The notes beneath the pieces were generated by a model, which had not been told where the DNA came from, did no database searches, and saw nothing but the letters and a program-made list of their open reading frames with translations. From Rhizophagus irregularis (Eukaryota): a DNA stretch of 64,000 nucleotides. Shown here piece after piece: positions 10,827 to 63,199 of the stretch (its first letter is position 1; every line of letters begins with the position of its first letter). The stretch covers positions 62,001-126,000 of the forward strand of contig NC_089432.1 of the NCBI RefSeq assembly GCF_026210795.1. Reading direction: 5' to 3'. The position numbers and the translations under genes were made by a program.

Positions 10827-10829
10827 ACT

Positions 10830-40850: not shown

Positions 40851-41189
40851 ATTGAATTTTTTGTAAAAATTAAAGTATTAATTGCAGCTCTTTATCATAC
40901 TTTAAAGTAGAGGTGTGCTCCAGTGAAATCCGTTCAATCCATCATCCGATCTGATCAAAAAATGGATCATCCGGATTAAGAATGAACGGATTGCGAATAA
41001 TCCGGATGGATCTGTTGGATGATATCGGATTGATCGGATGTTACATGGATAACCAGATTGACCAGATTGATCAGATAATCTGGTCCAATCCGGTCAAATT
41101 TATACTATTTTTTTTCATTATTATTATTTTTTTTTTTTAAAAAAAAAACACTTTGAACTTGAACTTGGACTTCAGAACGACTTGGATGG

Positions 41190-42470
41190 CTTGGATTTCA
41201 AAAGGTAAGCGTAAATTTCTTTTTTCTTTTGTCTTGGGAATGTCATTAACGTTCCTTTTGCTTCTTTTCTTTAGGGGACGCCTTCCTGAACCCGGTTTTC
41301 AGCTTGGGCTATTGAAGGTAAGTTAATAATAGAGGTTTTCATTTTTTTTTGTCATTAGGAACATCATTAACGTTCCTTTACTTCTTTTCTTTAAGGGACG
41401 TCTTCCTGGACTTTTTTTTCAGCTTGGATTATAAAGGTAAGTTGGAGGAAGAGTTTTTTTATTTTTTCTTGTCTTTAAGAACGTAATTAACGTTCCTTTT
41501 ACTTCTTTTCTTTAGAGGAACGCCTTCCTGGACTTGTTTTTTGGCTTGGGTTATAAAGGTAAGTTGGAGAAAGAGTTTTTTCTTGTCTTTAGGAACGTAA
41601 TTAACGTTTCTTTTACTTTTTTTCTTTAGGGGAACGCCTTCTTGGACTTTGATTTTGGCTTGGGTTATAAAGGTAAGTTGGGGAAGGGTATTTTGTTTTT
41701 TTGTCTTTAGGAACGTCATTAACATTCCTTTTTGCTTCTTTTCTTTAGAGGGACGCCTTCCCGGACTTGGATCTCAGGCTTGGGTTATAAAGGTAAGATG
41801 GGGAAGTGTATTTTTTTTATTTTTGTCTTTAGGGACGTAACTAACGTTCCTTTTTGTTTCTTTTCTTTAAAGGGACGTATTCTTGGACCTGGATTTCGGC
41901 TTGGGTTATAAAGGTAAGATGGGAAAGTGTATTTTTTTTTTTTGTCTTTAGGAACGTAATTAACGTTCCTTTTGCTTCTTTTTTTAGGGAAACACCTTCT
42001 TGGTCTTGGATTTCGGTTTGGGTTATAAAGGTAAGTTGGGAGGGAGGGCATTTTTTTTTTTTTGTCTTTAGGAACGTAACTAACATTCCTTTTGCTTCTT
42101 TTCTTTAGGAGGACGCCTCTTGAACCTGGATTTTGGCATGGATTATAAAGGTAAGTTGGGGGAAAGGTATTTTTGTTTTTTTGTTTTTAGGAACGTAATT
42201 AACGTTCCTTTAGCTTCTTTTTTTAGGGAGACACCTTCTTGGACCTGGATTTCGGCATGGGTTATAAAGGTAAGTTGGGAAAAAAGTATTTTTGGTTTTT
42301 TCTTGTCTTTAGGAACGTAATTAACGTTCCTTTTGTTTCTTTTTTTAGGGGACGCCTTCCTGAACCTGGATTTCAGTTGGGATATAAAAATAAGTCAGGG
42401 AGGGGTAATTTTGTTTTTTTAGTCTTTGGATAGTCTTTAACATTCTCTTCTTTTTTTTTCTTTAGGGGTC
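41190..42470 (+). repeat. Exon/intron-like tandem array 3 (~120-bp units)
   Basis: About 11 copies of TATAAAG|GTAAG...AGGAACGTAATTAACGTTCCT...TTTAG|. Confidence 0.88.
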
Positions 42471-42735
42471 TTCAAACTGGTTTGATCCAAATCTTAAACT
42501 TTTTATAAATATTGTGTCAAATAATTTGTTAAAAATCATGTGTAATAACGTAAAATAAATACTATGTTTATTATTAAAAAATTTTTAATTGTCAATTAAT
42601 ATTAATAAAAAGTATTAAGTAGAAAAAATTGAATTCGGATTCATCGGATTCACCGGATTAACCAGATTATTCAGATATCCGGTCAACCATCCGGTCAAAT
42701 TGGTGAGCAAGTATTGACCAGATATCCGATGATCC

Positions 42736-43416
42736 AGTAGGACAATCTTGGGGGTTCTGGGACAGCGGCTATCACATAGGTCTACCATAATTTAGTGTAC
42801 CCCCAGACCACCTAGCCTTGTTTTCTGATATGATAACACTATACCTGTTTTTCTATCCCCAGACCACCTAACCTTGATTCCCGATATGTTATTACTTGAT
42901 AGCTAAAAAGAACCCCCTAAGCGTTATAGATAAGATTAACATCATTTATTCCTAGGCATTATTACCACGCATGAATCCATTCCAGGGTATCATAATTTTA
43001 TGCTATATCAGATTGCCTTTATAAGTGCCAAAGGTATGAAGGACACGAAGTGTCTGTAATACCGATGGCACGATTCAGCAATCCATTGTGGCATACTATT
43101 TTTATGATACTCTAAAAGGGATTCATTCGATGATTTAAGCCATTCATGCTCTAACCAAAAATGTATAGCAGGAAGGCAACTAGACATATTGTAAAGCTTT
43201 CCCTGCTATACGAAAAAATCTGGGACAGTGAAGTCTAACCAAAAATCTGACCCAGGCTTCAACCAAAAATGTATAGCAGGAAGGCAACTAGATATGTTTT
43301 AAAGCTTTTCCTCCTATACGAAAAATTCTGGGACAATGAAGTCTAACCAAAATTTAACCCTAATCATAAATTGCTCTGATTCTTTGACGAAGCCTATTTT
43401 CATACCGATTTTGATA
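42736..43416 (+). repeat. Left TIR of element B
   Basis: Reverse complement of 59033-59715; contains internal direct repeats. Confidence 0.95.
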
Positions 43417-43596
43417 ATAACTCCCAATATGAGATTGACATCGACCACTAGATGAACCTGTAGGTTTACCACATACAGCACAAGGAAAGCGTGATTTTGT
43501 CTTCCAATGAATGCGACAACCTTCTGGCCTCACACAAGGACGACCACAAGGCTTGCCTGTGTTATGTAAATATTCACAAGTATATTCTCCAATCAT
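43360..43596 (-). CDS. Small Cys/His zinc-binding protein whose 3' end lies inside the TIR
   Basis: MIGEYTCEY...KPCGRPC..PEGCRIH...CAVCGKP...RCQSH. Confidence 0.6.
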   Translation of the reverse strand: MIGEYTCEYLHNTGKPCGRPCVRPEGCRIHWKTKSRFPCAVCGKPTGSSSGRCQSHIGSYYQNRYENRLRQRIRAIYD

Positions 43597-43648
43597 TTTT
43601 ATTAAGTATAAATAAGTTAAATTAAAAAAAAGTTTACATGATATAAAA

Positions 43649-44026
43649 ATGATGTCTACCCAAGCTATACCAGCTAAGCCAACATACCGTGAAATTGAAT
43701 CAGCTCTAATTGCTGTAATTAAAGCAGGCATCCTTTACAAGAAACCAAAGGATGGTAAATTCATGTTATGTTACAAACAAAGGATAATCAAATTGCGTCA
43801 AGCAGAAGAACCAGAAAATTTTGTTCTTGAAACAGCACAATCTATTCTACCTAATGAGACAAAGTATCAGCAAATCTTGGAAAATTATAAGACCTGGTAT
43901 AGCAGAGAGCCAAAACTTTTGTCTGCTATTAATAAGCTATACAGGTTATACTATGAATTGGCAAAAGACTACTTCCTCACAGACTCCCAAGCAGATGATG
44001 AGGTAGAAGACTATCTTAATTCATAA
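43649..44026 (+). CDS. Small helical protein shared with element A
   Basis: Intact 125-aa ORF; by-eye similarity to 7717-8185. Confidence 0.7.
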   Translation: MMSTQAIPAKPTYREIESALIAVIKAGILYKKPKDGKFMLCYKQRIIKLRQAEEPENFVLETAQSILPNETKYQQILENYKTWYSREPKLLSAINKLYRLYYELAKDYFLTDSQADDEVEDYLNS

Positions 44027-45125
44027 GTACCCATTGTGGTGGAAGTTCTGTATCATCTGGTATAACCAAAAGTTCTTCCCTCACAAAGGATCTCTCTGAT
44101 TCTTTACCATCATCATCAATAAGCCAGTACAAAACTGGTTGATTTTTCTGTGTTAAAGACATATGGATATGATAAATCTTAGGTGACCAATTCATATCTC
44201 CTGCTCGACGTCTTCCACCTTCCAGATCATTTGGTTCAAGTAAGTACCTTACACTTATATTAGGTGGTAGTTTCTCTTCTTCATACCCAACAGGTCCATC
44301 ACGAGGATAAGAAGATCTGGAAGACACTCGTGATTTTTTTATAGCTATAGCAGGAGATATACCAAGTTGTTGGGTCACTGAGTTATTTATACTTTCTACA
44401 GCAATAGGTAAGTTTTTTACCCAGACTCGAGATCTCGTTTTACCTAAAGTTAGTAAGTCAGATGCATCTTGAGAGGGAAATAGTTTCTCAACCAAGGTAC
44501 GATTATATCGCTCCACAATGCCAACAGTACGCTTAGACTTGGCCTTTTGAATCTTTACACCATGGGAAGTCATCAGCTTTTCACACTCACCTTTAAACTC
44601 TGAACCCCTATCTGTAATCAATAATTTTGGCCAAGTGAGCGGACATGTTGTATCATCATATACCTTTTCAAAAGCCCGAGCAATAGTATGAGAAGTTAGG
44701 ATTCCCTGTCGATTTTTAACACTGGTTGAACCTATAGGAACACTTTCTTTATACCTCGATGCTATATCAACTATATTGAGACAGAAAAGATAAGTCACAT
44801 GTCCAACCTTGTCATATGGCATATACAAAATGTCAGCTTGATGAACTTCATTGGGAACTTGTATAGAACTAAAACTTACACGAGAGATAAATCGGGGACG
44901 AGGTTTGTGGACTTGATGTACTGCCTGTCTTTCAAGCCAATCCTGCACTTCATCTAAGGTGAAATCATATCCAGCATTTTGTGATGTCTCATACAACTTT
45001 TTGGCAGTCCTCTGATATCCAGATGGTTGGTAGAATATCCTGCATAAAGCCGAAGTCACCTCTACATTTCGTGCTTCATCAGAATCTATTGGAATAATAG
45101 GAATCAATGGGAGTTGAACAGGCAT
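44016..45125 (-). CDS. Polinton-type rve integrase, intact, no chromodomain
   Basis: FYQPSGY..KKLY...VQDWLERQAVHQVHKP, HQADI, ITDRGSEF, VERYNRTL, NWSPKIY...FVREEL; ATG at 45125. Confidence 0.93.
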   Translation of the reverse strand: MPVQLPLIPIIPIDSDEARNVEVTSALCRIFYQPSGYQRTAKKLYETSQNAGYDFTLDEVQDWLERQAVHQVHKPRPRFISRVSFSSIQVPNEVHQADILYMPYDKVGHVTYLFCLNIVDIASRYKESVPIGSTSVKNRQGILTSHTIARAFEKVYDDTTCPLTWPKLLITDRGSEFKGECEKLMTSHGVKIQKAKSKRTVGIVERYNRTLVEKLFPSQDASDLLTLGKTRSRVWVKNLPIAVESINNSVTQQLGISPAIAIKKSRVSSRSSYPRDGPVGYEEEKLPPNISVRYLLEPNDLEGGRRRAGDMNWSPKIYHIHMSLTQKNQPVLYWLIDDDGKESERSFVREELLVIPDDTELPPQWVLMN

Positions 45126-47191
45126 ATCTTGATTTGTTAAATAGCAACTTTGATTTGCGCAAACAGCTAGTTCAAGAGGAAACAAATAATATTTCCAATA
45201 AGGAGAAAATCCGTAAACTCACAAAGGAGATAGAGGCATGTGAACGATATATCTTCTATCTTGAAAAAAATCTTGTTTCACGTGAGGATGAAATCGATCG
45301 GTTAAAGGCAGAGTGTCAGTCCACTTTAGTTGAACTTGGAAAGTATCGAGATCACTTAGAGTTAAAGGAAGAGGCACTTGTTGCCCAGGATGAACGTATC
45401 ATTCAGCTTGAAGACACAGTAGATAAACTCAAAAAACGCATTCAAGAATTATCTTTATGTAAAGGAAAGATAGAAATGGATGAAGATAATGAATTATTCA
45501 ATCCTATTCTAAGAATACTAGACCGCCGACGGGCAGTTGCAGATTGTGTGTCTGAGATTAGACTATTTTTTGATCGGAATAGGATTCCAATTCCACAAGA
45601 CATAGATGATGTCTTTAATGCTACACTCAAAGTCTTGATGAAATTATTCGTCAAGCTGCTCTAATGCAAGAAATTGGTGTAGACCAACTAAATCAGATAG
45701 AAGGATTGCAGACATTACTTGGAGAATCTTTAGATCGTACAAATACTCTTAATCAAGACTTAATAAGAGTACGTGATGATTTTACATATGAGAGAAATGC
45801 TCGTAGACACTGGGAAACTATTGCACAACAGAATCAAGCACGTATTGCAGGAATACAAATAGCCAATCTAGGTATACGTTTTCTGAATAGACGCAAAGAT
45901 GCACAACTGGCAAACCAACAGAATCAGCTGGTAAATCAACAGAATCAGATAGCAAACCAACAGAATCAGATAGCTGAGCATAGAAGGAATGCACACAAGC
46001 TGATGTTACGCTATAATGCTGATACAGAACGTTGGAGAAGAAGGCATGCAGGTTGTATACGTCAGGCACAAAACTGGCAAAGACAATATAGGATTTCACA
46101 GACCCAGGTACAAGCACAGGCCCAAAATATTTTAAATTTACAACAACAAATATTAGCGTTACAAAACAATCCTCCAAACATGGCTACAATACAAGATGTC
46201 ATGCATACTATATCACCAGGTCTTGCACAGTTACCATTTTATGATGGACAAGAGCCGCCAGACTCTTATTATCAAAAGCTTAGAGCTGTCAATGAGATGG
46301 CTCGTCCACTAGCTTTTGCTGGTTTTAATGCTGCTATGAGATGCAGTGTTATGAAAAATAAAATGTCTGGTAGATTTATTCCTATTCCAGCAAATAATCC
46401 ATATAATGCCAATGCTGCTATTAATACAGAACCAGAGTTTCTAAACTGGCTGCAAGGAAAATATAGAGATGTGATGGTTGGAACAAATCAAGGTGCTATA
46501 ATAGCACTCATGAATGAATCATTTTCTTCTATAGATACACCAGATACATATGCAAAAAGGATTCGATCATTAGCACAAGGACAAGTATATGCTGAAATTT
46601 TACCTTATCTATATAATCATTTGCCTGATGTTTTAGAAATGAGAGTTAGAATTGCTGCTCCTGCTGATCTTGATGCTTTCTTTAATGAGTTACGTAATAA
46701 ATGGTATGAAAGTGGAGGGCGAAAAAATCCAACCACTATAGTAGAACAACCACAGAATAGAACTGCATTAGAAAAGCTTGCAGATATAGCAGTACGTCTT
46801 GGCTATACTGGTGACATAACAAATCCCTGTAGCAATACATACTTTCATTGAGAGTGATCTTACCAGAAAGTTAGGTGGACAAACACAACATCTAAGAAGA
46901 GATCACTTCGGAACTGGTCAGGTTAAAAAGGTGACAAAGACAACCAAATCTTCTCCTAAACGTCATTGCTCAAACTGTGGTAGAACAGGTCATTCCAAGA
47001 ACAAGTGTTCACGGAGTAGATGTACTAAGAAAGTTAACAATACTCACATAGTTGACTATGAAGAATCTGAAAGTGATGAGGAAACTGATGAAGAAACTGA
47101 GGAAGAGTTAACTGAAGAAGAGGAGGAGGAGGATGAACCTCAGAATTGCTTTAGTGTAAAAAAAAAACTTGTCGACGTGGAGTTTTGGTAA
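45107..47191 (+). pseudogene. gag: Gag-like polyprotein (coiled coil, capsid-like domain, CCHC zinc knuckle, acidic tail); two 1-nt frameshifts
   Basis: LPFYDGQEPPDSYYQKL, WLQGKY, DTPDTYAKRI...HLP..LEMRV, CSNCGRTGHSKNKC (CX2CX4HX4C); frameshifts near 45630 and 46830. Confidence 0.8.
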
Positions 47192-48099
47192 AAAACAAAG
47201 GGAAGAAATCCCGTACTTCCAAATCTAAAAGAGAACCTATTCTCAAGAAAACTGATGAAGTCTTTCATGCAGCACTGAAGTCTATAATTGCTTCACTAGC
47301 AGCACAATGTCCTAAAGAAATCCTCCTACAGATTAATGCTTATACCAATCAAGCATATGAGAATCTGAAAGACCCGCTTTTAAATCATTTTGTTAGTGAC
47401 TATCCAGTTAGTGAAAGAAAGAAACTCTGGGATGTTCTTTCAGCAAATATGCAAGACATTTTATCTCCTTTGGTTCATATTGTTAATACTACAATAACGC
47501 CGCTATTGCCAACTCCTCCTGTAGATGCGCCACCTGAAGTAGAACAAAAAGATGATAAAACATTGAATCATGCAATTCGTGCTTATCAGCAGAAAAACTT
47601 ATACTGGCCAAGACCCATAGAAATCAACTTTCTGCGGTTAGATGATCCCAATGATGTTGCGACCATTTCCTGTAAAATCAAAAATGTATGCATACCCTAT
47701 GCCATGATCGATACAGGGTCTGACTCCTCAGTAATCTCTGAAAATGTAGCTAAGCATCTAGGTCTCAAAATAGATCGGAAGAATGTGCATGCGCTTAATG
47801 GTGTAGCTGGATCAACCAAAACTCTTGGCACTATCAATGAGATCCCTATAACCATCGGAGAAGGAGAAAATTTGATCACCATTTCAGATGAATTTTCTGT
47901 CATACCTACTGAGAAGGATCGAAATGGTAAGGACAAATCATTGCTAATACTTGGTACACAGTGGCAGTATCGTGCAGGATGGGAACCGGTAGTAAAGGGA
48001 GAATTCAAAGCTAATGTGAATGGTAAGTCTATTTCCATTCCTCTTTCTGTTCACAAGGCTCAGCGAAATGTCTTTTCAGTTGAGGTTAAAAAAAACTAA
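47155..48099 (+). CDS. Retropepsin aspartic protease in the -1 frame of gag
   Basis: YAMIDTGSDSSVISENVAKHLGL, LNGVAG flap, LLILGTQW; frame opens after TAG 47152 just before the A10 run. Confidence 0.88.
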   Translation, partial: CKKKTCRRGVLVKNKGKKSRTSKSKREPILKKTDEVFHAALKSIIASLAAQCPKEILLQINAYTNQAYENLKDPLLNHFVSDYPVSERKKLWDVLSANMQDILSPLVHIVNTTITPLLPTPPVDAPPEVEQKDDKTLNHAIRAYQQKNLYWPRPIEINFLRLDDPNDVATISCKIKNVCIPYAMIDTGSDSSVISENVAKHLGLKIDRKNVHALNGVAGSTKTLGTINEIPITIGEGENLITISDEFSVIPTEKDRNGKDKSLLILGTQWQYRAGWEPVVKGEFKANVNGKSISIPLSVHKAQRNVFSVEVKKN

Positions 48100-48416
48100 C
48101 TGATCGCACCTGCCAGTATTGTAATAAGGAGTTTCCCTATCCTTCTTATCTCAGACAACATTTTTTACGAAAAAACCCATGTGCAATAAAAGAATCCCAT
48201 GTGCATCCCACGCAAAGCCCATGCGAAGTTAAAAAATCTCATGTGCAACCCACGCAAAGCCCATGCGAAGTTAAAAAATCCCATGCGCAACCCATGCAAA
48301 TTCTATGCGCAGTTACCACTGAAGGAGGAGGAAAAAAATCCCATGTGCAAACCATGCAAAGACCGGAGCAAGCAACTGTTCCTATTCGACTATTTCTCTC
48401 CTCTGGTTATGAATAG
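48090..48416 (+). CDS. Zinc-finger/repeat ORF in the -1 frame of the protease, with no ATG upstream of the finger
   Basis: KKLTDRTCQYCNKEFPYPSYLRQHFLRKNPC followed by SHVQPTQSPCEVKK repeats; starts at A AAA AAC right after TAA 48087. Confidence 0.6.
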   Translation, partial: KKLTDRTCQYCNKEFPYPSYLRQHFLRKNPCAIKESHVHPTQSPCEVKKSHVQPTQSPCEVKKSHAQPMQILCAVTTEGGGKKSHVQTMQRPEQATVPIRLFLSSGYE

Positions 48417-48853
48417 ATGTAAAATAACGTTCTCTAACGTAATTCAAATCATATCCAGGATGAAGATTATTGGGTTTAGGAAGACGATCTCCACATAAAA
48501 CAATATCATAGGCCATGTTTGGTGATGATTTACGAAGTTTATAACAGTATTAGTGTTTATATGATGATTTGCGAAGTTTATACTATGTATTTATCAGATT
48601 CAGTCGATCAGAGGTCCCTTAGGACCGGACAACTCGAAGGATTACCAGCTCGGAGGATGTTCATCAAGCCACATGCGTGTACTCCTGTGCAACAAAATAA
48701 ATGATCACACGGCAGGGTCTGTACAACATCCACATTTTTCACATATACCCCCACTTGGTATTTTTGCGCAAATAAAATTCTTTTTTATTCTTGTCCTCAC
48801 ACACCGTACTTTGAGCCAATAACATTTCGCAAAAAACAGTATAAAACCCGAAA

Positions 48854-50354
48854 ATGTCAGTCACGTTATTCTGCCTTGTCAAAGGAAATACGACCGCGAA
48901 CGCTTTCGAAGTTGATATTGAGAAGGACAAGTCTATTAGCAAACTCAAGGACGCCATAAAGGCGAAAAAAGCACCAGAGTTCGACAATTTTCCTGCGGAC
49001 AAGCTCAGGCTATGGAAAGTGGAAATTGGTGGCGATCACCTTGACGATCAGTTGAAGAATCTCAAACTCAATGGCAATGACGAGTTGTCTGCAATAAACG
49101 AAATTGGAGAGTACTGGACCGAGACGCCGCCTAAGAAACATATTCATGTCTTAGTCGAACCACCCGTGTCAACCGTCACTTCAAGTCGCGAACAGGAATT
49201 ACTTGACCAAGTCGCTTCGTTGCAGGCATTACTCAACAAGTCCGTGCATGGTACGTATTTTTTACTTACGAGCCGTCAGCGAAATCTTCAGGTCATGAGA
49301 CTAACCCGGTTATTGCATTATAGCGTTCGATGTCGTCGTGAGTCCGAAGCGAACGAAGAGCTTCAAGTGGACAGTGAATATCGAACACGCGACTCTCGAA
49401 GGACTAAAAGAACATATACGTGGAGTTCACAAGACACCGGCCCTCGACAATGATGGAGCGGAACTTAGCATGTTAAACGACAGTGGGAAATTCTCTCCTC
49501 GAAACGATCAGGGTCTTCGTGAGATGCTTAACGTATTCGTGTCGAAGAACAATCTCAAGTTCACCGTGTTCATTGAGACGCCATCAAAACCATTTTCAGA
49601 TTGGTCATTCCCGAAGGTGTGCCAGCTTTATGGTCTTGGCGAGTCAGACGATCCCTCGTTATCAGTGTTCCCGCCTTTCACTTGCGAGTATAAAGAACTG
49701 GAAGAGGATTCTTCCAAGGCAATACTCAAACATCTTACTGCGGAGCTGAATGCTCGTCTCAAGGCTATTCCAATCAGCGGGAATGAAGCATCGAAATCAC
49801 AATATGTCTGCTCCTATCTTGTCGCCGGGGTAAATCTGTACGAGAGGAAGTTCGAGCTTCGACCAGAAAAAAACATCACAGGACCCAATGGACACGGACC
49901 GGTTGATTTCGCAATAGACTTGCTCCAAACTGCGAAAACTGTCGGTGTGACAGAGGTAAAGGACGAAGATTTTTTTAAGGGTATTGCTCAGAATGCCGTT
50001 CAACTCGAATCCGCATTATCAAACCGTAAACGTAAGGCGAATGAGATGGAGGAAGAGAGTGTGTTTGTAGGTAAGGTATTCGGGATAATCACAGATGCGG
50101 AAAAATGGTACTTTATGGAATGTTCGCTCGATGATCAGGACAGGCTAAGATTCAAACTATCCGAACCTATTGTCGTTGTATACAAGGACGAGAATATGGA
50201 AAACATGGTTAGGAAAGTTCTCGGACATATTGCATGGTTATTGGAGGAGGTGCAGAAGCCGGATTCAGCTTCACAAAGTGAAGAGAGGGCAATAAAAAAG
50301 CCTAGGTCATCGGGTAATCTTAAGGAAAAATCGGATACGGTCGTTAAGTCATAG
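48854..50354 (+). CDS. CRN: Crinkler-family effector (CRN ubiquitin-like N-terminus + REase-fold C-terminus), two exons
   Basis: TLFCLVKG..AFEVDI..LKDAIK..LRLWKV..HIHVLVEPP; intron 49251-49323 (GTACGT..GACTAAC..TAG) joins in frame; GPVDFAI..TEVK..GIAQNAVQL. Confidence 0.88.
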
Positions 50355-50652
50355 GATAGAAAATTAGTCATGTATCACGGGCAAAGTCCCGAGCATTTTA
50401 ACTCGTACTTCAACACCTGTATAATGGGATGCGTCCCGAACCAATGTATTTATTTTTTATCCTCAGTCTGTATTAATAAAACATTCACTCGAAAACACGT
50501 ACACACACGTTTTAAATGGCAAAGAAATAGATTTTATTATTCATGATATATAGGTTTTGCAAACGAAAAATAAAACGGATAGCGGATGTTTCAAGTGAGG
50601 AATTTGCCGGCCACTAGACCATATAATGGCAGTTCCTTCCCGCTATCCTTTA

Positions 50653-51392
50653 CTAACTATTGTTAATTTCATTATTGATATTACTACTGCTATTGATATT
50701 ACTACTACTATTACTCGCGAAACTAACTACCCTTTTCCCCTCCCTTTCTATCCATGGAGTTAATTTATCCATCGTAGTTTTTCTTGGATTCGTTCTGTGA
50801 TGATAGAAACTGGCTAATGTGCCAGGACTTAGTCCGATCTCATCGGATAATATATTGTACATTTGTGTAGGAGAGCGATTCCCCTTTTTTCTTCTCTGAT
50901 CGAAAATGGCAGTGAATTCAACCCAATACATTTCTGTTTCGTCGTCATACTCGGAACGTTTGCCAGTAGTTGAACGACTTGCAGAAGAGAATCGGTTTGA
51001 TCCTACTAGAAGAAATGAGGCGCAGGTTATTATGTAACGTCACGGGCAATGAATCATATGCGGACTGCGGACTGCGGACTGTGACGTGCATGCTTACCTT
51101 GTGAGATTACGTCATTCCGCCACTCATTTTCAGCGCGCATTTTTTGAAGTTCATTATTTAGCGCCAGGACCGTTCTTTCAAGTTCATTATTTGTCCCGGA
51201 CTGATATTTACGAAAAAATGACAATGCACCAGCTAAAATTGCGTATGTGAAAACATTTCCCGAAAAAACATTCTGGAGCATATCCATTGTTAAGATGCCT
51301 CGGGTATGCAGGGTTCCCAAAAGAACCGGCATCTCATGGATTACGATTATGGAAATGAAGAGTGTAATCAAAAAAATATCACGTCTGTTCAT
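50653..51392 (-). CDS. Two-exon gene: hydrophobic N-terminus, coiled coil, C-terminal HTH-like domain
   Basis: Intron 51097 to ~51003 (GTAAGC...TAG) joins ORF 51054-51392 in frame with ORF 50653-50931 (LSDEIGLSPGTLASFYH..TNPRKTTMDKL). Confidence 0.55.
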
Positions 51393-52051
51393 GCTATCTG
51401 TAGTTTAAATTGTTTCAAAAAGCACTATGCAATTTTATTTGGGACTTTTGAGATAATAACAGTTGAAGAGTGTTAACTTTAAAAACGGGAAACAAGGTCC
51501 TTTTATACTTTATTAATACTGCGCGAGAGATTTAACCGCATGATTACTAAAGGGGTATCCGTAGTTTTTTTATTAACACCCAAAATTGGTAGAGAATGAG
51601 TAATTGCGCAATCTAGAATATAGGTTAACAGTTAAATAATGCCCCTTTTCATTGTTATACAGTCACTTCGATCGCCTTATAATGCAATAGAAATCGATCG
51701 ACGGTACCACAGCATCAAATCAGGGGCATAACAAACATTGTTGACTCATGGTCTGTTTTAATTAACGTAATTTACGCTACACAAAATTTATGCCAGAACT
51801 TTCAGGACCGCCTATTACTCAGTATTTTTACGTATATACTGCGGCATATTTTACATATGATTTCGTGACTTATTCTCACATAATTCAAAAAAATTCTGCG
51901 GCTGCGGTAGTCACATGGTTGAGCAATAGATTATATGCGGTTACGCACTACACAATTATTATGAATTATAGGTGATCAAGCAAGGATCAGGTAATTCATG
52001 TCAGCAGGCAAATGAAGATAAGTATTTTAGTACAAACTACAAACCGTAGCT

Positions 52052-52402
52052 ATGGAACCAGTCTTACCAAATGATTCTATCCTTAGTGCAGAATACGAGA
52101 CCCTAGGGTTAATAGACAATGATAACAGCAATGGATCTGTGATAGATAATGAAGACGATGAAGTTTGGGATGATGGTGATGAAGATGACTCTGATGATGA
52201 TCACGACATTTTGGGTATCAGAGACGGACACGATTACATAGCTTGTTATGGTAGAGATGCTTGGGATAAACTTATTCAAGCCCAGGAGGCTCGTCATCGT
52301 ATATCCTTCTTAGGTTATTTACCCAACGCCTTCCAAATATTTCTGAGCAAGCAAAGAATGGACTATTTGATATATTTACCGAATCATCTGCTTTTGGAGT
52401 AA
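52052..52402 (+). CDS. Acidic hypothetical protein
   Basis: 116-aa ORF with a D/E-rich stretch, inside element B. Confidence 0.4.
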   Translation: MEPVLPNDSILSAEYETLGLIDNDNSNGSVIDNEDDEVWDDGDEDDSDDDHDILGIRDGHDYIACYGRDAWDKLIQAQEARHRISFLGYLPNAFQIFLSKQRMDYLIYLPNHLLLE

Positions 52403-52885
52403 GGGAACACAATGCACTTTTAGACGCACTAGCTGATCCAGTGAATGGTTTAAGTCTTTTCGAATATGATCAACTGTATTACTAATTCATCGGAAGACTT
52501 GCTTTATTAATACGCGAAAAAACAAATAGAGGATCAATCCGGCATTGGTTCGGGACGAAGCCCGCAATACATGACGCCTGTGCTAATATACACGCTTAAT
52601 TTTTTAGCCTTTGGCAGTGATACTGCGGCCACTTTACATATGATATCAATGACGTAATACTGCGGTGTGATTTCGTGACCTTTCTCACATGATTCAAAAA
52701 ATGTTACTTTATTTATTCGTAACAGCAATCGATACATAAAAAACGAATATATTACGTTACAAGTCATAATAATAGCAGGTTCGCCCATGTCACAACACCG
52801 AAAAAGGACCCCCTAGATCGGTGTAGTAATTATAACTTTCTTTTCCTGATAGGTGCTATTGAAGGGACATAATAGATAATAGTAA

Positions 52886-53190
52886 TTATTTTTGCCCTGA
52901 GCAGACCAATCCCCCCATATGCCTGAAACTGCTGACGTTGTTGGACTGATGCTCATTCACCACCGAAGAGTCCTGTTCCACTTTTGCGAGTCTGGATTCG
53001 GCATCCTCTCCATTCTTCTCCAACTCCTCGATCTTATTCCCTAGTTCCTTCCTGAGATTTGCTACCTCGCGTTTAAGATTGAAATTCTCAGCCTCAAAGC
53101 TCAGTACTACACCGTTTAAATACGTTAAGTTCGGCATTCTCAGCCTTCAGCTCAGAGATACACTGTCTCAAAACTTCAAGTTGGTTAGCT
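52886..53190 (-). pseudogene. Coiled-coil protein fragment
   Basis: Heptad-rich EAENFNLKREVANLRKEL; appears rearranged. Confidence 0.35.
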
Positions 53191-53359
53191 TTGTTAACGG
53201 ACATTATAGAAATTATATTCGACATGAATTTGTTTAATGTTATGAGAAAAAAAAATTACGAAAGCGGGACACTGCGTACTTTATTTAATAAAACATTGCC
53301 GAAAGTCGGCTTACAATACATAAAAATTGCGAATATATCGCTACATGATACAAAAATTA

Positions 53360-53656
53360 TTATTCTGATTCTTTTTCCTTCGGTAATACAGGGTGTACGG
53401 TGATATGAACGTAGTCTGTATCGGGTTGACCATTAAAATATTCAGAAATTAAAGTCTGCGATTGCATACGTCTTTCATTAACACTGCTAGGATGAATTTG
53501 ACGAATATCTAGAGGAATGTTATTAAAAGACGCCCCTAGATTGTTTCGAATTGCGGTTTCAAGAGCGCTAACTGTTTGTCCCCTGTCAATTGTAATTCTT
53601 CTATCACATAGAAGATCATTAGAAACAATACGGCAGTTGAGAGTAATATCGGTCAT
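53360..53656 (-). CDS. Stand-alone CRN-N-like ubiquitin-like domain protein
   Basis: MTDITLNC..ITIDRGQTVSALETAI...ISEYFNGQP..VHITVHP. Confidence 0.6.
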   Translation of the reverse strand: MTDITLNCRIVSNDLLCDRRITIDRGQTVSALETAIRNNLGASFNNIPLDIRQIHPSSVNERRMQSQTLISEYFNGQPDTDYVHITVHPVLPKEKESE

Positions 53657-53884
53657 ACTGGAATCCTGAATACATATGGAGGCCCTTAGTGAGATTATTT
53701 GCATGAAAACATTTTCATTATTTTCAATCTCTTGCATATACGCACCTTAATTTTTTGCGAGAAGGTTGAGTAAACTTCTACCTGTCCTTTTACGCTTTAT
53801 ATACTGGAACTTGCAGAATAAGAAGCCGAATACCGAATATAAGAAAGATGATTAACATTGTCGTATGATGCCAAGAAACCTTTG

Positions 53885-54160
53885 AAAGCACATGCAAGCG
53901 GAATTTTCAAACCTTTTCACATGAAGATCTTCCTCGCAAGTCTCAAAGTAGCTTTACGCCTGGCGATCTCGGAATTGCAAAGTCCTCAGCCTTTCATAAC
54001 ATATGCTTTTGACGTTAATATTGACTTATAGGGTAGACCTGTGTTGCGTGTAGACTTTCTTTCACATTTTTCTCACATTTGTTTGGGGAAAAAAATAAAG
54101 GTACTAGTTGGCATGAATATTTTTTCAATATATGCGAAAATTAATATGTCGCACAGACTT
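53885..54160. repeat. Copy of the dispersed repeat at 28110-28375
   Basis: Collinear matching blocks in the same orientation. Confidence 0.8.
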
Positions 54161-54529
54161 GCCTTGTGATCTGCCTATTTTTGTCGCACAATCAGTGGCT
54201 CAGCAAAAATTGATGATCGTCTCTCCGCAATGCCTGACCTGTTGATCATATTCTCCGGGACTAGGGCACCTGTCTGTTGACCTTTAGCGTTTCCGACACT
54301 TGTCCGCGACGAGGACCATGTCGTTTTTTATGTCAATGACAGTATCCTTGTCAACAACCTCGTCAATATCATCTTCAAGTGATTTAAGACGGGAGCAGTT
54401 TTCCTCGCCGGATGAATGTTTTTGTCGTACCATGTCATTTGTCATTTTAGTGATGTGTCCTAATACTAACCGCACGTCTAAACAGATAATACGTTATATA
54501 TGCTATATCTTGTTTGAAAAAATAAATTC

Positions 54530-54826
54530 TCACCTTGACCGATTCTCCAGGATCGCCTTCTCTTGCCCTTCTGGGCACTCTACAGAAGCTAGTAGTGAAT
54601 AATAAAATGCCTCTACTAAGTCATAAAAGGCTTTTGGAATGTTTGGTACAGGGCATTTCATAAATGCATCAATACTAGTCTTAGAACTTATGACCATTTT
54701 AGCTAATGCCTTTATACTTTTTATTGCATCCTCTACATCTTTAAAGAGACCTCTCTGAATTGTAACATGCACTAGGTCATCGATATATTCTTTACTATGT
54801 ATATCATAGATTGGATCGTCTTCCAT
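54530..54826 (-). CDS. Hypothetical protein downstream of pPolB
   Basis: MEDDPIYDIHSKEY... ORF co-oriented with pPolB; may be spliced to 54284-54475. Confidence 0.4.
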   Translation of the reverse strand: MEDDPIYDIHSKEYIDDLVHVTIQRGLFKDVEDAIKSIKALAKMVISSKTSIDAFMKCPVPNIPKAFYDLVEAFYYSLLASVECPEGQEKAILENRSR

Positions 54827-54899
54827 TTTAACTACTGAGAAAAAAATATAATTTATTATTAATATATGCCTAAGTATCACTAAACTATTCTATATCATT

Positions 54900-57800
54900 C
54901 TAATATTTCTCTGGTAATCTGGTTCCTATAGCTATTTTTTCTGCTGTCTCATGACTTGTGCCACGCTCAAGAAGTTTCTTATATACTTTAATACGCCAGT
55001 GTCCGAATGGTAAGGAGGATATACCATCTGACCAAATCCAGCGTTTTGTATCAATTGGGGATAATGCCTTCTTCTCTGACTCAATTAGTGATATTACATG
55101 ATTTTTTGTACGCATTCCTACATTCTTGGCATAGAAGATATTATTTTCAAAAAGACAGTCCCGATATACTTGAGTCATAGGATCGAAGATTTCATCTTTT
55201 TCTACTGTATCATCTAATAAAGTTCCACCTAAAGATGGGAAATATGTGTCCTTAGCCATATCACTCATACCCTTCTTGCTTACTCCTTTATGTTTGGACT
55301 TTGTAGACTTGTCAGCCAAGATATAGTGGTAAGATTTTGCACGGATGTGGTAGGATTCAGTAATTACATTTCCAGGAGTCTCATCCTTGAAAAGTCCGAT
55401 AGTCTTGGTATCATTAAGGTCAAAGAGATCTGGACGCTCTGCCATATCCTTGTAAATATCTTCTGTCTCAACATGGTAGATAAAGGAGTCAGTATCCATA
55501 TATCCAAGTCGTGCCTTGTCTCCATACTTCTCCTTGACAAAACCATACCAGAAGCAGTACATTAAGAGTTTACTGAGACCGAGGACTGATGCACCAATGA
55601 TAATAGGCTTATTGAGAATAACACTAGCCTTACCCATATGTGCTCCTACAAGTGTGTTGCCAAGTTGACGAGCATACTTGAAGGAGGGCTTGCGGATTTT
55701 CTTAAGGAATTTCTTCTCATCATTTTCATTGATCATTCTCATAAGCTTGACATCCTGATATTTACGTACATTCTCCATAGTCTTGCCATAGACTGAGTTA
55801 TTCATGAGTTTAAAGAAGTCTTTCTCAAATGAATTCTTGGATTGTTGACGTAAATTTGTATTTTTTGCAATATAAGGAGCTAACCAGTTATCCTGATCAA
55901 ATGATAGGACTTGTGTAATCTCATCTACAACCATGCCTAACTTAATGTAATACTGGAGCTCTTGGTAATGTATGACATAATCTTCATGTTTACCAAGATG
56001 TGGAACTAACTTCTCTGTTTCAGGGAATCGCCCTCCATCTAAGTTATTAACAAGTTTGGTTATATATGGACTTAACCTATCCTTTTTTACAGCTATACTA
56101 TTAACTGCAGGAGGTAAATCTTGTAGATAATCATGAGTCTTAAGAGGGAAGTGCGCTTTGATATTTAGGAAGTAACCACGGGCAGCATCTGGTTTTGTAT
56201 TAAGAATTACATTAAGTATTTGCTTCTGCTTATCTGGATTCTGTTTGAAATATTCTGGAGATGCTTCCCATCTGTAATTACCAATAGGTAAGTACTGGCT
56301 CATAGCCCATCCATACAGATTGTTTGCATCTACATAGGAAATCCAAGTAGTAGGTTTAGAGGGATTAAAGGAGTCACCCATCTTAGGGTTATTGGCTTTT
56401 AAGAAACGGTGTCCAGCCATAGCTATTCCTCCACGTTTAGCCTTTTCAGTAAAATCATGCATGGTCATGTCAGTGAATAGCTCTATCCTGATTCCAGTCA
56501 TCTTGAGCATGCCATCCCAAGAAAGTGCTGGAGCAGAGACATAATGACTTGGGTCAAGTCCATAATGATGCATCGCTGTCTGTCGAAATTTTGTCCAGAC
56601 ATCTGCTAGGAGAAGAACATCAGTCTTAAGGTAAAGGTCATGATACTCGCCCAAGTTCTTGCAGCCAAATTCCTTCCAAACTTTTTGTGCATGTTTGTAA
56701 TTATTCTGAGTGATCTCTCCTCCAAGAGTACTATAAAAGTCATGAATAGATGGGAGTTCTGTCTCCTTGAAACGATCATGTGAATCAATATATTCATAAG
56801 GATAAACCCCCTTACGTGTGATTAGGTCAATATGTTCAGACGAGAAGTTTTTAAAGTGTCGCTTTGTGAGAGGTTTATCTGTCCCTAAATTCTTTGCAAG
56901 GTTTGCAAGACTGGAGGCCATGAACTGCATGCTGTCAATGTACTTGAATTGCCCTACCTTCATGGATTTGTAACGTTCGAATGTCTCTGCAATAACTTTG
57001 ATTTAATGTGCTCCAATTGATCGTCCAACAGATTCACAAACTAAATGGGAGTCATAGCCACGGAAATTGTGGAAGACTACAGGAATTGGAGTCTTCCATG
57101 CTTCAATTTGAAGCTTAAGATTGCATGCATTATGAGCAGCCCCACGAAATTTACCTGTGATGTGGCAGTGATCCCAAACTTTTTTGTCCTGATCGAAATT
57201 TCCATTACATATCCAACAATTAACTGCTTCAGTGAATTCCTTTTTAGCTTCCTCTGTTACAATACGTTCTACTTTTACTTCTAAAACATCATTAATCCTT
57301 CTTAATTCTTTATCAAGTCTGCGGACAAACTCTTCTGTTGCATTTGGTCCTCGGTATAAAAATGGCCCCCATGTCTCATCAGTTTCAATCCAGTGGACCA
57401 TATAGCAGAAGCTATTAGCCTTTTGCTCCATAATCTTATGCATATTTCCACCATAGTTTTCATTACACTTTCTATTATCAGCCTCAAAGTCTGCAATAAT
57501 TACACATGGAGCATACATTGTTCGGTTAAAATTCTTAAACTCCTCAAAATCATTCTTACCTTTAACTGGTAACTCAACTCTTTGTGGTGCCTCACCTAAT
57601 CCAAAACACCATTCCTGATGATTAGTTAGAGATTTAGACGATGGAAAGCTTTGGAAGCACCGATTGCAAAGATACTTCTTTCCCTTGTGGGATGTATCTT
57701 TGTATATTAAAGCATCAGGATTCTTAATCCAAAGGAAGTGGTTCTTCTGACCATACTTCCCTTCATCTGATTTTGTAATATCTGTAAGGGCCATGAGGTG

Positions 57801-58958
57801 AATGATATGTTGACGGTTGTAATTTTTACTTGCAATAACAGGTTTTGGAATACCAGTTTTCTCCTCCCATTCCCATACATTAATGGAGATCTCAGGATTG
57901 AGGTCCTCAATCTTGCTAAATATGCGTGGACAAACAGGAGTGGGCATGGGAATTGCATTGAGATTGACTTGTTCCAAGTATGGCTTAAATTTTTCTGCCT
58001 GAAAGATTCGCTCAAGTTTTTGTGTATGTCCATCTTTATATGCAAAGTAAGCACCTAAAGCCCCTTGCAAACATTTTTCAGAAGGCAAACCTGTGTCCGG
58101 ATCTATGAGATCTTTGTTATCCGGATTGATAGTGCACTTCTTATTTGCAAGTGCCTTAGGTGTGAGAATGTATGAGCCTCCTTCTGCTCGGCGGTAAGTA
58201 TACGTCTCAATAGTTAATATATCTATACTAACAATTTTCCAACCAGACCCTCCTTTCATAAATTTGACAATTTTATCTGTGATATCCACTGCTGATTTCG
58301 TTAAATGATCATCTATATCATTCTTTAAAAGAAGTACACGCATGACTCCTCTATGATAAACTTGCTTATATGTTCCACTATTATCTGTATATGTAGCCAA
58401 TATAGTGATAGCTGATTTGATTTGCCCCTTTTCTTCAAGTTCACTCTCAAGAATTTCTGTTATTTTCTGACGGGTATCAGCTATTATACTTGGGAAATAT
58501 GGTATATCTCTAACATTTGGTTTAAGATCAGCTTGCCATACTGTCTTATGTTTTAGAGATTTATGTGGACGTGCAGGATCATGACCTCTTTTTACAAATT
58601 GAATATCACACCATCTTCCTCTATAATCTCCTTGCATATAAGCAAACCATTCATTATCTGTTTGTGGAGCTCTTCTTCTTCGTGGAGTATATTGATTGTA
58701 ATCACCAGGTCCTGCTAACCATTTTGCTAGTTCATCAATTGTTAAGTTAGGAGTTTTCTCTGTATGAGATGGGATAACTTCAGGTGTGGGATCCTGGAGT
58801 TGCTCCGGTTGTGGTTGCAATTGTACAATCTCAGGTGTGGGATCCTGAGGTTTAGCTGCAGGTTTGCATAGAAACTTTCTATTTTGATGCCCACGAAGCT
58901 TTTGTGGAGTTGCAAAAGCCTTTCCACATCTATCACAAGTTCGATTACTTGTTGCCAT
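54900..58958 (-). pseudogene. Full-length protein-primed family B DNA polymerase (~1350 codons) with a single TAA at 57003
   Basis: N-terminal Zn finger; SEKCL..NHFLWIKN; ExoI IIADFEA; CWIC..WDHCHITGKFRGAAHNACNL; ExoII FHNFRGYDSH; ExoIII YLKTDV; YVDANNLYG, KLMNNSVYGK, YMDTDS; the two ORFs are in frame (GAH*IKVIAE). Confidence 0.95.
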
Positions 58959-59032
58959 ACTGGTTGTGTACTAATAACCTAAAAATTTTTTTCTTCAATT
59001 AATAAATTCTAAAATGTTTCCCATCTTATTAC

Positions 59033-59715
59033 TATCAAAATCGGTATGAAAATAGGCTTCGTCAAAGAATCAGAGCAATTTATGATTAGGGTTAAATTTT
59101 GGTTAGACTTCATTGTCCCAGAATTTTTCGTATAGGAGGAAAAGCTTTAAAACATATCTAGTTGCCTTCCTGCTATACATTTTTGGTTAGACCTGGGTCA
59201 GATTTTTGGTTAGACTTCACTGTCCCAGATTTTTTCGTATAGCAGGGAAAGCTTTACAATATGTCTAGTTGCCTTCCTGCTATACATTTTTGGTTAGAGC
59301 ATGAATGGCTTAAATCATCGAATGAATCCCTTTTAGAGTATCATAAAAATAGTATGCCACAATGGATTGCTGAATCGTGCCATCGGTATTACAGACACTT
59401 CGTGTCCTTCATACCTTTGGCACTTATAAAGGCAATCTGATATAGCATAAAATTATGATACCCTGGAATGGATTCATGCGTGGTAATAATGCCTAGGAAT
59501 AAATGATGTTAATCTTATCTATAACGCTTTAGGGGGTTCTTTTTTAGCTATCAAGCAATAACATATCGGGAATCAAGGTTAGGTGGTCTGGGGATAGAAA
59601 AACAGGTATAGTGTTATCATATCAGAAAACAAGGCTAGGTGGTCTGGGGGTACACTAAATTATGGTTAGACTTATGTGATAGCCGCTGTCCCAGAACCCC
59701 CAAGATTGTCCTACT
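59033..59715 (-). repeat. Right TIR of element B
   Basis: Reverse complement of 42736-43416. Confidence 0.95.
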
Positions 59716-60409
59716 GATCCATCCAGTCAATCTGATAAATTATCCGGATCAATCTGAATCTGGTCAAATTTTGGATGGATGACCGGATATCCAGATTGAC
59801 CAGATTCAGAGCATACTTCTACTTTAAAGATTTGAAACGATCACCTTGGAAGATGATCCTTTTTTCGAAATTGAGGTAAATTTTGCCATGCATAATAGCG
59901 AATTTGTTGATTTTAACAAAAATGATTGGGTGTAAATAATTCATGATGTAAATTTTATAACTAAGCCACTATTAATAAATAATTTGTGAAACCGTTATTT
60001 GTAATTAAACAGTGATAAATATTATTGTGATCCATTTTGGCTGATTTTCTGATAGGGTGCTTATTTTTGGTATTATTTAAAATGTGAAGGTGCTTATTTT
60101 TGGGGTGCTTAATATCAGCAAAATATGGTATTCCACAAATCTGCAAATATCCAAAGTACCACAATTCAATTGGGAATATTTGCGAGATTGCGGAATATTT
60201 GCGGATTTGTGGAATGTCTGCAAAAAAAACCAAAGTTTTTTTTAATGAAATATAATTTTTTAATTTAACTAATAAAAAATATATTTCCTCTTATTATTAA
60301 TCATAAAAAAAAATCATTTTTCATTAACAAAATTTAAAAAAAATGATTTTATTTTTTAGAAAAAGATGGATCGGTAATTGGAAAAAACTGTCAGAAACGG
60401 CATTTTCTC

Positions 60410-62662: not shown

Positions 62663-63199
62663 CACAGGTCAAAAAGTGAAAAATCAGGCATCAATCAGGC
62701 ACCAATCGGTCACCAATCAGGTACCTGATTGGTGACAGATTGGTGCCTGATTGGCATTTTTGCCAAATACCGTCACCAATCAGGCAGTTTGCTAACTTTT
62801 GATCCAGTGATCAGAAAAGAGTAAAATATAGCTCATTGGAATCACCTCAACAAGACGAATCTAATGGTAGTAAAATCGCATTTTTAGGATTAATACATGA
62901 TGAGAAATTAAGTAAAATGTAAAAATAAAAATATATCATTTATATTTTATTTAATTTTTTATTAACTATTAATTCTAAAAATGTGATTTTACTACCATTA
63001 GATTCATCTTATTGAGACGATTCCAATGAGCTATATTTCATCCTTTTCTGATCACTAGATCAAAAGTTAGCAAACTGCCTGATTGGTGACAGTATTTGGC
63101 GAAAATGCCAATCAGGCACCAATCAGTCACCAATCAGTCACCAATCAGCTACTTGATTGGTGACCGATTGGTGCCTGATTTTTCACTTTTTGACCTGTG
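62663..63199. mobile_element. Palindromic CAC-ended MITE, copy 2
   Basis: CACAGGTC...GACCTGTG; 3-bp TSD TTT; same family as 23151-23674. Confidence 0.85.

Follow-up and report, generated by a model that had tools for sequence, protein, structure and literature searches.

Element B occupies positions 42736..59715 (16,980 bp) of the 64,000-nucleotide window analysed here, which comes from the arbuscular mycorrhizal fungus Rhizophagus irregularis, and it is bounded by terminal inverted repeats (TIRs). The left TIR (42736..43420, plus strand) starts with AGTAGG and contains two internal repeats of about 100 bp, and the right TIR (59029..59715, minus strand) has CCTACT as its final letters; the two are 685 and 687 bp long and are identical in 680 of 689 aligned columns, with 3 mismatches and 6 gap columns. 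The 5-bp target-site duplication GATCC is present on both flanks (42731..42735 and 59716..59720, plus strand). An alternative reading of the junction has GT..AC ends flanked by a 7-bp repeat, TGATCCA, and none with 6 bp fits. The AGT...ACT termini, the near-identical TIRs of about 680 bp and the GATCC duplication had been described in the first-pass annotation, and its view of the locus as a recently inserted, Gag-bearing Polinton-like element with host-like cargo is upheld. The empty-site joint (42729 to 59715) was found in contigs of X1 and X14, with 7 letters shared at the joint. Contiguity was confirmed as far as the check could be run: the tiling of the left 10 kb by exact-match contigs extends into the cargo, and exact-match pieces in X4 span the cargo borders (48251-48786 and 54129-54625). 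No one contig covers the whole element from TIR to TIR, and the polymerase region of this copy has no exact-match contig in X1. Read depth over the core versus the cargo is about 560-720 versus 34-51 in X4 and 140-190 versus 11-13 in X2, ratios which hint at roughly ten or more element copies and are not a copy number.

At the left end, a small Cys/His-rich ORF (43360..43596, minus strand) has a 68% match in locus L029. It is followed by orf136, a conserved ORF of about 125 aa (43649..44026, plus strand), which is also present in the relatives L004, L006 and L029 and in element A of the same window (ORF 7787-8185, E 4e-7). The search of ESM Atlas gave no match for orf136, and no family was assigned to it or to the small ORFs by Pfam or PHROG. 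The next gene (44016..45125, minus strand) encodes an rve integrase with D-D-E motifs and a Polinton-type C-terminal tail; its Pfam match (PF00665, E 8.5e-7) is under the curated cut-off, and it aligns with a coral Polinton-derived protein at 25% over 255 aa (E 3e-16). The frames of the integrase and of the protease described below are both open, as had been reported.

The gag gene (45107..47191, plus strand) lies head-to-head with the integrase gene, their start codons overlapping, and comprises a coiled coil of about 350 aa, capsid (CA) domains, a CCHC knuckle and an acidic tail. The length of the coiled coil ahead of CA is unusual. The CA region (46168..46725, plus strand) is predicted to fold into N- and C-terminal domains of retroviral or retrotransposon type (AF2 pLDDT 86.7; VIA, Foldseek and ESM Atlas). 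In a structure search of 48,161 chains, all 37 chains at Z>=5 were retro-type capsids and the first unrelated row stood at Z 4.9. The best match was the PEG10 CTD (Z 10.9, rmsd 2.4, 82 aligned) and both domains together matched MLV (Z 7.5, 161 aligned), a Z of 8-11 being moderate for helical domains of this kind. The top ESM Atlas matches were Retrotrans_gag clusters (0.94). Foldseek with the CA model gave nothing at E<=0.001 (best 0.022 in PDB and 0.0071 in BFVD), Pfam matched a Gag family in 0 of 68 members, and the whole-length profile found coiled coils only among PDB sequences. The nucleocapsid-like CCHC zinc knuckle (46964..47011, plus strand) is weakly matched by Pfam zf-CCHC (E 0.009-0.03), and its Cx2Cx3GHx4C motif is present in 47 of 120 homologues. 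The identification as Gag is supported by the predicted fold, the zinc knuckle and the aspartic protease that follows in the -1 frame.

Gag had been considered broken by two 1-nt indels, and the assembly does contain them, one near 45623 and one near 46825. They are probably not true lesions: a 4,161-nt short-read contig of X1 matching 43263-47423 with 0 substitutions has neither, family contigs of X14, X2, X3 and X4 likewise lack both, and the indels are therefore probably assembly errors.

The aspartic protease ORF (47155..48099, plus strand) has a DTG motif, is matched by Pfam Asp_protease_2 (E 8.2e-7) and lies in the -1 frame relative to gag; an in-phase A10 run (47158..47167, plus strand) is the predicted site of the -1 frameshift between them. 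Of the 17 full-length gags, 16 have an in-phase A AAA AAA at most 36 nt from the stop and 13 have the protease next, in the -1 frame; other long frames have such a run in 10 of 91 cases, and several of these are gag 3' halves themselves. The third change of frame, from gag into protease, is conserved and apparently programmed. A second A-run (A AAA AAC, 48090-48096) leads in the -1 frame into a C2H2 zinc-finger ORF (48088..48416, plus strand) with no Met ahead of the finger, and the same layout is repeated in L001, L003, L005, L009 and L037. This heptamer is that of MMTV gag-pro. A pseudoknot 3' of the A-run, which seemed credible from five loci, was rejected: only 73% of cells are paired across 11 rows, 101 of 500 shuffles were equally good and covariation was not above chance, so that no conserved frameshift-stimulating structure is backed by covariation in these rows.

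The right part of the element is taken up by a protein-primed family B polymerase (pPolB; 54900..58958, minus strand) having a C2H2 motif, a putative TP-vOTU region, an endonuclease VII-like insert, an exonuclease and a palm, with the exonuclease and palm motifs present. At its N-terminus, where terminal protein and vOTU domains would be expected in a Polinton, EKCL (Cys) and HFLWIK (His) are candidate motifs conserved in fungal relatives. The search gave 4,832 homologues, adintovirus PolB among them; the protein is 40-44% identical to marine-invertebrate Polinton polymerases, and the fungal pPolBs form a separate clade (SH-aLRT 100, unrooted tree). The in-frame stop by which pPolB was said to be broken exists in the assembly (57003-57005); it is absent from the displayed rows of the reads, where the contigs over the site come from other copies.

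Between the zinc finger and the polymerase lies the variable cargo of host-like genes (48500..54590), which is absent from the relative L001. The variable part is placed at about 48.2-54.6 kb because L001 joins 48144 to 54928 via about 280 bp and other copies diverge left of about 54590. One cargo gene (48854..50354, plus strand) encodes a Crinkler N-terminal domain (PF20147, E 1.7e-27), and 87 X24 RNA reads, as well as contigs of X15 and X17, show its GT..AG intron (49250-49323) spliced out, which agrees with the spliced, host-like genes proposed for this region. A second, weaker Crinkler-domain exon region (53360..53746, minus strand; PF20147, E 1.9e-6) has an RNA joint near 53671-53751. The cargo RNA reads are mostly 90-95% alike and 71% continue into unlike sequence, therefore much of the cargo RNA signal comes from paralogues; the X15 contigs over 49036-50312 are mostly exact matches. 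In X24, the one run of raw RNA reads examined, depth is close to zero over the integrase, gag, protease and pPolB genes, and the core genes are absent from X15 and X17. The proposal that this copy is close to an active form finds no support here: the core genes are near-silent in X24, pPolB has a stop in the assembly, and relatives with open frames and no cargo exist (L001 and P0121).

Genes expected of a virion-forming Polinton were searched for in the element. In none of the 47 stop-free frames of at least 70 aa did Pfam recognise a family of capsid, ATPase, helicase or reverse transcriptase (RT), and the searches for A32 ATPase, primase/helicase and RT gave no match within element B, in keeping with the reported lack of an ATPase, helicase or double jelly-roll capsid. 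For the double jelly-roll major capsid and penton, which have no Pfam capsid match in element B, the absence rests mainly on lack of room, because the element is taken up by its core genes and L001 has about 280 bp to spare between zinc finger and pPolB. Similarly, there is no Pfam match to an adenovirus-like cysteine maturation protease and no core ORF of such a size is left. Three fungal A32 proteins (four query pieces) matched only element A in the window, and self-comparison of 42600-59900 gave only the TIRs and their internal repeats, with no LTRs. Element A has an A32 ATPase at 10955-11693, a 5-bp target-site duplication, a different replication module, a protease, and a CA-fold protein of its own for which the top 36 rows are all of retro type; the CA domains of A and B gave no alignment by BLASTP or hhalign. 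An A32 ATPase also adjoins a B-family Gag in L023 and L034.

The relatives of element B were 64 metagenome loci retrieved with the CA profile. The integrase is head-to-head with gag in 15 of the 19 loci having at least 1.3 kb upstream, with CA identities from 89% down to 32%. Because of short contigs only 3 of the 64 loci extend to a pPolB, and TIRs are seen on none. L001, an independent contig, has the same gene order as element B (integrase, gag, protease, zinc finger, pPolB) with open frames, and this order is also present in L006. The gag-protease module, expected to recur in other copies, is thus accompanied in relatives by the same integrase and polymerase, on contigs lacking the TIRs. 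P0001 (gag) and P0122 (pPolB) are both on 9,188-bp contigs, which is a linkage hint only. Between element B and L001, dN/dS is 0.17 for CA, 0.14 for the integrase, 0.21 and 0.085 for pPolB and 0.056 for the protease domain (0.06-0.24 across compared genes), values by which gag and protease are under purifying selection, as are integrase and polymerase. RT occurs just once among the scanned loci, in L057, where it belongs to a LINE on the opposite strand, and none of the 24 longest new CA-bearing proteins has RT or RNase H. Neither the CA, as a sequence or as a profile, nor the polymerase nor an 18-nt TIR motif found a relative among IMG/VR viral contigs.

We interpret element B as a Polinton-type DNA element in which gag and protease take the place of the jelly-roll virion genes, are predicted to form a capsid of retrotransposon type and likely serve to package its own DNA, an explanation that we hold slightly better than even. 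The gag-protease module is very probably an integral working part of the element, and it probably forms particles; that these hold the element's DNA without a motor has about an even chance. Through slippage on the A-run a minor share of Gag would be fused to the protease, and another slip would add the zinc finger. Gag would build an intracellular shell which the protease would mature, while pPolB would replicate the excised linear element, with protein priming at its TIR ends. The zinc knuckle may bind the displaced strand, a panhandle closed by the TIRs, which would be enclosed as the shell assembles, and because of this proposed enclosure a packaging ATPase would be dispensable in the lineage. 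The integrase would insert the double-stranded product, making the 5-bp duplication. Particles may then shelter the DNA and move it among nuclei of the shared cytoplasm or through hyphal fusions. Particles and their contents in element B are deduced here from its genes.

Such deduction, along with the unusual coiled coil, leaves some place for a gag-protease that works for the element otherwise than as a genome container, either as a replication or pre-integration scaffold or as a restriction factor poisoning the capsids of competing LTR retrotransposons; several of the best matches to the fold are CA proteins that have been put to other uses (PEG10, Arc and the Ty1 restriction factor Drt2). 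We regard this as unlikely, since CA, knuckle and a frameshift-rationed protease are all kept under purifying selection, and the three together are the stoichiometric design of particle maturation in retroviruses. A Gag shell filled with double-stranded DNA by an A32 ATPase, supplied to B in trans by relatives such as element A, is rather improbable. Element A, L023 and L034 retain the ATPase beside Gag, which speaks against the motor-free model, but B and its open-framed twin L001 have none, and we know of no retro-type capsid that is filled by a motor. One published Glomus Polinton is ATPase-positive and MCP-negative in the available part of its description (PMC4028283), which would suit this mode of filling.

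Packaging of the element's RNA by Gag, with copying by the RT of another retroelement, is very improbable: the cargo genes are transcribed and CA with CCHC knuckles normally packages RNA, but the ends are TIRs and not LTRs, the relatives have a conserved, open pPolB, both strands bear genes and an intron is retained in the cargo. A decaying LTR-retrotransposon piece nested in a capsid-less Polinton, or an assembly chimera, is equally hard to credit, for although nested insertions are common in such genomes and the contigs leave the element unspanned, the gene order shared by L001 and L006, the low dN/dS, the lack of LTR and RT and the X4 pieces across the cargo borders all stand against it.

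Returning to the Polinton-type element that packages its own DNA in a Gag shell, a wider reading can be offered tentatively. Mycorrhizal fungi may harbour hybrid viruses which copy DNA to DNA by a Polinton polymerase, use a retrovirus-type Gag capsid and dispense with reverse transcription, in at least two deeply different lineages (A and B, with unalignable capsids), and whose particles move host genes, such as those with Crinkler domains, between nuclei or strains. To our knowledge, a retro-type CA shell occurs only in reverse-transcribing elements and their domesticated descendants. If the interpretation is true, an RT-free, protein-primed DNA replicon keeping CA, knuckle and a frameshift-rationed protease under selection would be a chimera of two virus realms, and a retro-type shell would be able to house a genome replicated as DNA. 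The puzzle of the undetectable capsid of Glomus Polintons would likewise be answered. Mavericks are reported to have expanded in Glomerales with recent activity in R. irregularis, and together with the host-gene cargo this gives a testable route of gene shuffling in fungi long thought asexual.

Among known systems, Polintons/Mavericks (Polintoviricetes, adintoviruses) share with element B the pPolB, the rve integrase and the long TIRs, and their end motif (AGT)2//(ACT)2, as given in the accessible part of the source, is like its AGT..ACT ends (PMC8097293). They differ in having jelly-roll major and minor capsids, an ATPase and a cysteine maturation protease, where element B has gag and an aspartic protease, and in a 6-bp duplication instead of 5 bp; the fungal polymerases form their own clade. 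From the same host group, Polinton-1_GI elements of Glomus intraradices (Rhizophagus irregularis) are described, in the portion at hand, as P_Gi1.1 and P_Gi1.2, one of 11,954 bp without MCP, penton, ATPase or protease and one of 11,019 bp with the ATPase only (PMC4028283). Element B may belong to the 11,954-bp family, compared by description only, because it measures about 10.6 kb less its cargo and lacks an ATPase. Glomus Polintons are presented as capsid-less transposons in the available text (PMC7805220), the accessible parts of these accounts make no mention of a Gag or aspartic protease in them, and we found no published report of this gag-protease module. With LTR retrotransposons and retroviruses (Ortervirales: Metaviridae, Pseudoviridae, Retroviridae) element B shares the predicted two-domain CA, the CCHC knuckle and a -1-frame aspartic protease behind a slippery site, whereas it has no RT, RNase H or LTRs, its integrase is encoded separately and on the opposite strand, and its replication would be by a protein-primed DNA polymerase. 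Bidnaviridae, which combine a Polinton pPolB with an unrelated capsid, are a precedent for capsid swapping in this lineage, according to the part of the source available (10.1101/2024.03.18.585575); their capsid is parvovirus-derived and their particles are known, whereas element B is integrating, has a retro-type capsid gene and is known from its genes alone. The elements themselves were already known; the novelty lies in the capsid module and the role predicted for it.

Element B, a recent copy of a Gag-bearing Polinton-like element, occupies 42736-59715 (16,980 bp). Its left terminal inverted repeat (TIR; 42736-43420) starts with AGTAGG and its right TIR (59029-59715) ends with CCTACT; the pair is identical in 680 of 689 alignment columns, the rest being 3 mismatches and 6 gaps, and GATCC flanks the element on both sides as a 5-bp target-site duplication. 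The AGT..ACT termini, near-identical TIRs and GATCC duplication proposed in the first-pass annotation were thus confirmed by alignment. An alternative parse of the junction, a 7-bp repeat enclosing GT..AC ends, is possible, but one of 6 bp does not fit; the 5-bp duplication is preferred because AGT..ACT resembles a Maverick end motif given in PMC8097293 and because the duplication of element A, the second TIR element, is also 5 bp. Element B lies within a high-depth, GATC/CCGG-rich repeat (flanks 42630-42735 and 59716-59830). A joined empty site is present in sequencing runs X1 and X14, and since the flank is a high-depth repeat this site may derive from other copies of it. Apart from small gaps, exact-match pieces of X1 (which may be the source sample) cover 43263-53546, and pieces of X4 extend to both cargo borders; no single contig spanned the whole element.

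From the left, the element carries a small Cys/His ORF, a conserved ORF of ~125 aa, integrase (45125-44016, minus strand), gag (45107-47191, plus strand), protease (47155-48099), a C2H2 ORF (48090-48416), cargo and a protein-primed family B polymerase (pPolB; 58958-54900, minus strand). The start codons of integrase and gag overlap head-to-head at 45107-45125, leaving no intergenic promoter, and the arrangement looks similar in locus L005. The two 1-nt indels said to break gag are probably assembly errors, because both are absent from a 4,161-nt X1 contig that covers 43263-47423 with 0 substitutions and from the family contigs of X14, X2, X3 and X4. The single stop reported in pPolB is seen in the assembly at 57003-57005; the site is open in 7 of 7 fungal relatives covering it, the contigs over it belong to other copies, and X1 depth declines rightward in the element. 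Exonuclease and palm motifs are retained in the polymerase, which outside the fungi is closest to Polinton polymerases of marine invertebrates (40-44% identity); in an unrooted tree of 33 rows, built by a quick search, the nine fungal-type rows formed one clade with SH-aLRT 100. A coral Polinton-derived protein matches the integrase (E 3e-16), and the alignment takes in the C-terminal tail. Among named proteins, the best matches come from Rhizophagus irregularis (84-98%); relatives occur in R. clarus, R. diaphanus, Glomus, Diversispora, Acaulospora, Entrophospora and Paraglomus. None of the 47 frames of at least 70 aa had a Pfam match to a capsid, ATPase, helicase or RT family, and three fungal A32 ATPase queries, the element A primase/helicase and a LINE RT had no match within the element, which upholds the reported lack of ATPase and helicase.

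The capsid domain (CA) of Gag was modelled at 46168-46821 from a 68-row alignment (mean pLDDT 86.7) and compared with 48,161 solved chains. All 37 matches at Z>=5 were retroviral, retrotransposon or domesticated CA, led by the PEG10 CTD (Z 10.9, rmsd 2.4, 82 residues) and including Copia (Z 9.6) and dArc (Z 9.2); the first unrelated chain came at Z 4.9. Both CA domains align with RSV (Z 7.8, 156 residues) and MLV (Z 7.5, 161 residues). Foldseek gave nothing at E<=0.001, all its listed PDB rows being CA and its top BFVD row a Gag; Pfam assigned no Gag family to this type of gag, and in the ESM Atlas Retrotrans_gag clusters ranked first (0.94). Downstream of CA lie a CCHC knuckle and then an aspartic protease with DTG.

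A metagenome search with the CA profile gave 64 loci. Integrase stands head-to-head with gag as in element B in 15 of the 19 loci with 1.3 kb or more of sequence before CA, across CA identities of 32-89%; it was not seen upstream of CA in L034, L039, L057 and L060. Polymerase was reached in three loci: in L001, a cargo-free twin of element B, the frames of gag, protease and polymerase are all open; L006 shares the gene order but holds different filler; and the third is L017. Among 18 loci with listed ORFs (30 ORFs scanned) RT occurs only in L057, as a LINE on the opposite strand. A profile search of 1.84 billion proteins gave 254 clusters; among the best 150 the longest CA protein has 913 aa, and none of the 24 new CA proteins above 400 aa carries RT or RNase H. 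Simple counting on one pair, element B and L001, gave these dN/dS values: gag 0.16-0.24, protease domain 0.056, integrase 0.14, and the two polymerase halves 0.21 and 0.085. The element is real, on firmer support than first offered: its Gag-protease module is under selection and belongs integrally to a family of fungal Polinton-type elements.

In L017 (L017:2-4557) the order is polymerase(-) integrase(-) gag(+), the polymerase lying on the other side compared with element B, and an 11-bp tandem array separates polymerase from integrase; a TIR junction was sought there and none was found. An unannotated ORF family absent from element B stands beside gag and protease in several relatives (L006:4710-5297, L009:2409-3314, L018:2513-2926, L034:778-1368, L037:3841-4965), and L009 also has an F-box gene at this position.

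The gag-protease junction was examined in 46 loci and the window, a full-length gag being one with ~280+ codons past CA and a stop near the likely gene end (n=17; L020, with 282 codons and without an A-run, was left out as not full-length). In-phase A AAA AAA lies within 36 nt of the stop in 16 of 17, and a -1 frame of at least 100 codons, which is the protease ORF where identifiable, opens in 13 of 17; this does not hold for L003 (+1, one A seemingly missing), L023 (24 codons), L040 (contig end) and L026 (without the run). As a control, 10 of 91 other long frames had an in-phase A-run, of which 8 lie on the gag strand and 2 or more are visibly gag 3' halves. At the end of the protease ORF comes a second A-run; in the window and five loci the C2H2 ORF opens at -1 and lacks a Met ahead of the finger. 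A pseudoknot downstream of the A-run was tested and found no support; transcriptional slippage on A9-A11 may be an alternative to frameshifting.

Element B looks silent in the poly(A) RNA run X24 because its core genes have depth near 0. The Crinkler-domain cargo gene reaches a depth of ~100-145 (both mates summed), much of it from paralogues, and its intron at 49250-49323 is spliced in 87 reads, which bears out, for this gene, the host-like spliced cargo described earlier. A 26-29-nt motif with inverted copies at 50367-50446 and 52543-52575, near the 3' ends of cargo genes, together with the joining of 50381 to 51908 in other copies, suggests that cargo is shuffled in modular fashion.

Element A (2028-17156) is a decayed element with TIRs of about 470 bp and GTC..GAC ends; its 5-bp duplication is GTACA, and it has inserted into a ~130-nt repeat array. 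Its replication module is unlike that of element B, with a short broken pPolB, a DUF5906 primase/helicase, an A32 ATPase and a chromo-integrase. It has a homologue of the conserved ~125-aa ORF, a protease that starts at an A-run, and a predicted CA-fold protein whose top 36 rows are retro-type (best Z 9.9). This CA does not align with that of element B, suggesting either an ancient common origin or two captures.

Other repeats in the window are two AT-rich inverted-repeat elements of roughly 1.1-1.2 kb (19588-20679, a near-perfect palindrome centred at 20127, and 61261-62464) and a ~540-bp palindromic MITE-like element in two copies (23141-23684, 62664-63200) with 11-bp internal repeats. Transposase-like ORF clusters (33034-36652, 39221-40616) are flanked by arrays (32046-37064, 39221-42466) whose ~120-140-nt units end in TTTAG; they are probably further DNA transposons carrying sub-terminal repeats.

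We adopt a capsid swap as the reading of element B, that is, a retrotransposon-type shell in a Polinton-type element. It starts from the observed anatomy, conservation and selection, to which particle formation, packaging and protein priming would be added from family knowledge. In this scheme Gag would form the shell and a protease rationed by frameshifting would mature it. Copying of the linear element by pPolB would start at its TIRs, and the displaced strand would be enclosed by the knuckle as the shell assembles, without a motor; integrase would put the DNA back into the genome. The TP-vOTU-pPolB organisation and a bidnavirus precedent are found in 10.1101/2024.03.18.585575. Supply of the motor in trans, by an ATPase from relatives, stays alive because the A32 ATPases in element A and on two contigs with B-family Gag (L023:3-497, L034:6298-7146) fit a motor-free model poorly. 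A non-packaging role of the module is likewise kept alive by the apparent silence of the core genes in X24.

Mavericks are reported to have expanded in Glomerales and to have been active recently (PMC11952901, 10.1101/2021.03.30.436303, PMC11075540). Glomus Polintons are given as lacking MCP, penton and protease, an ATPase being present in one and absent from another (PMC4028283), and as having lost the capsid (PMC7805220); for Glomus and Rhizophagus, the available text of a 2026 preprint notes only A32 genes (10.64898/2026.06.19.733378). The available portions of PMC5751038, PMC6431247 and 10.1101/2025.06.16.659975 hold nothing on Gag in Polintons, and no report of a Gag-bearing Polinton appeared in the full-text literature searched, a scope outside which lie subscription journals, Repbase and bioRxiv supplements. 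On their defining features, element B belongs neither with the polintoviruses nor with the LTR elements.
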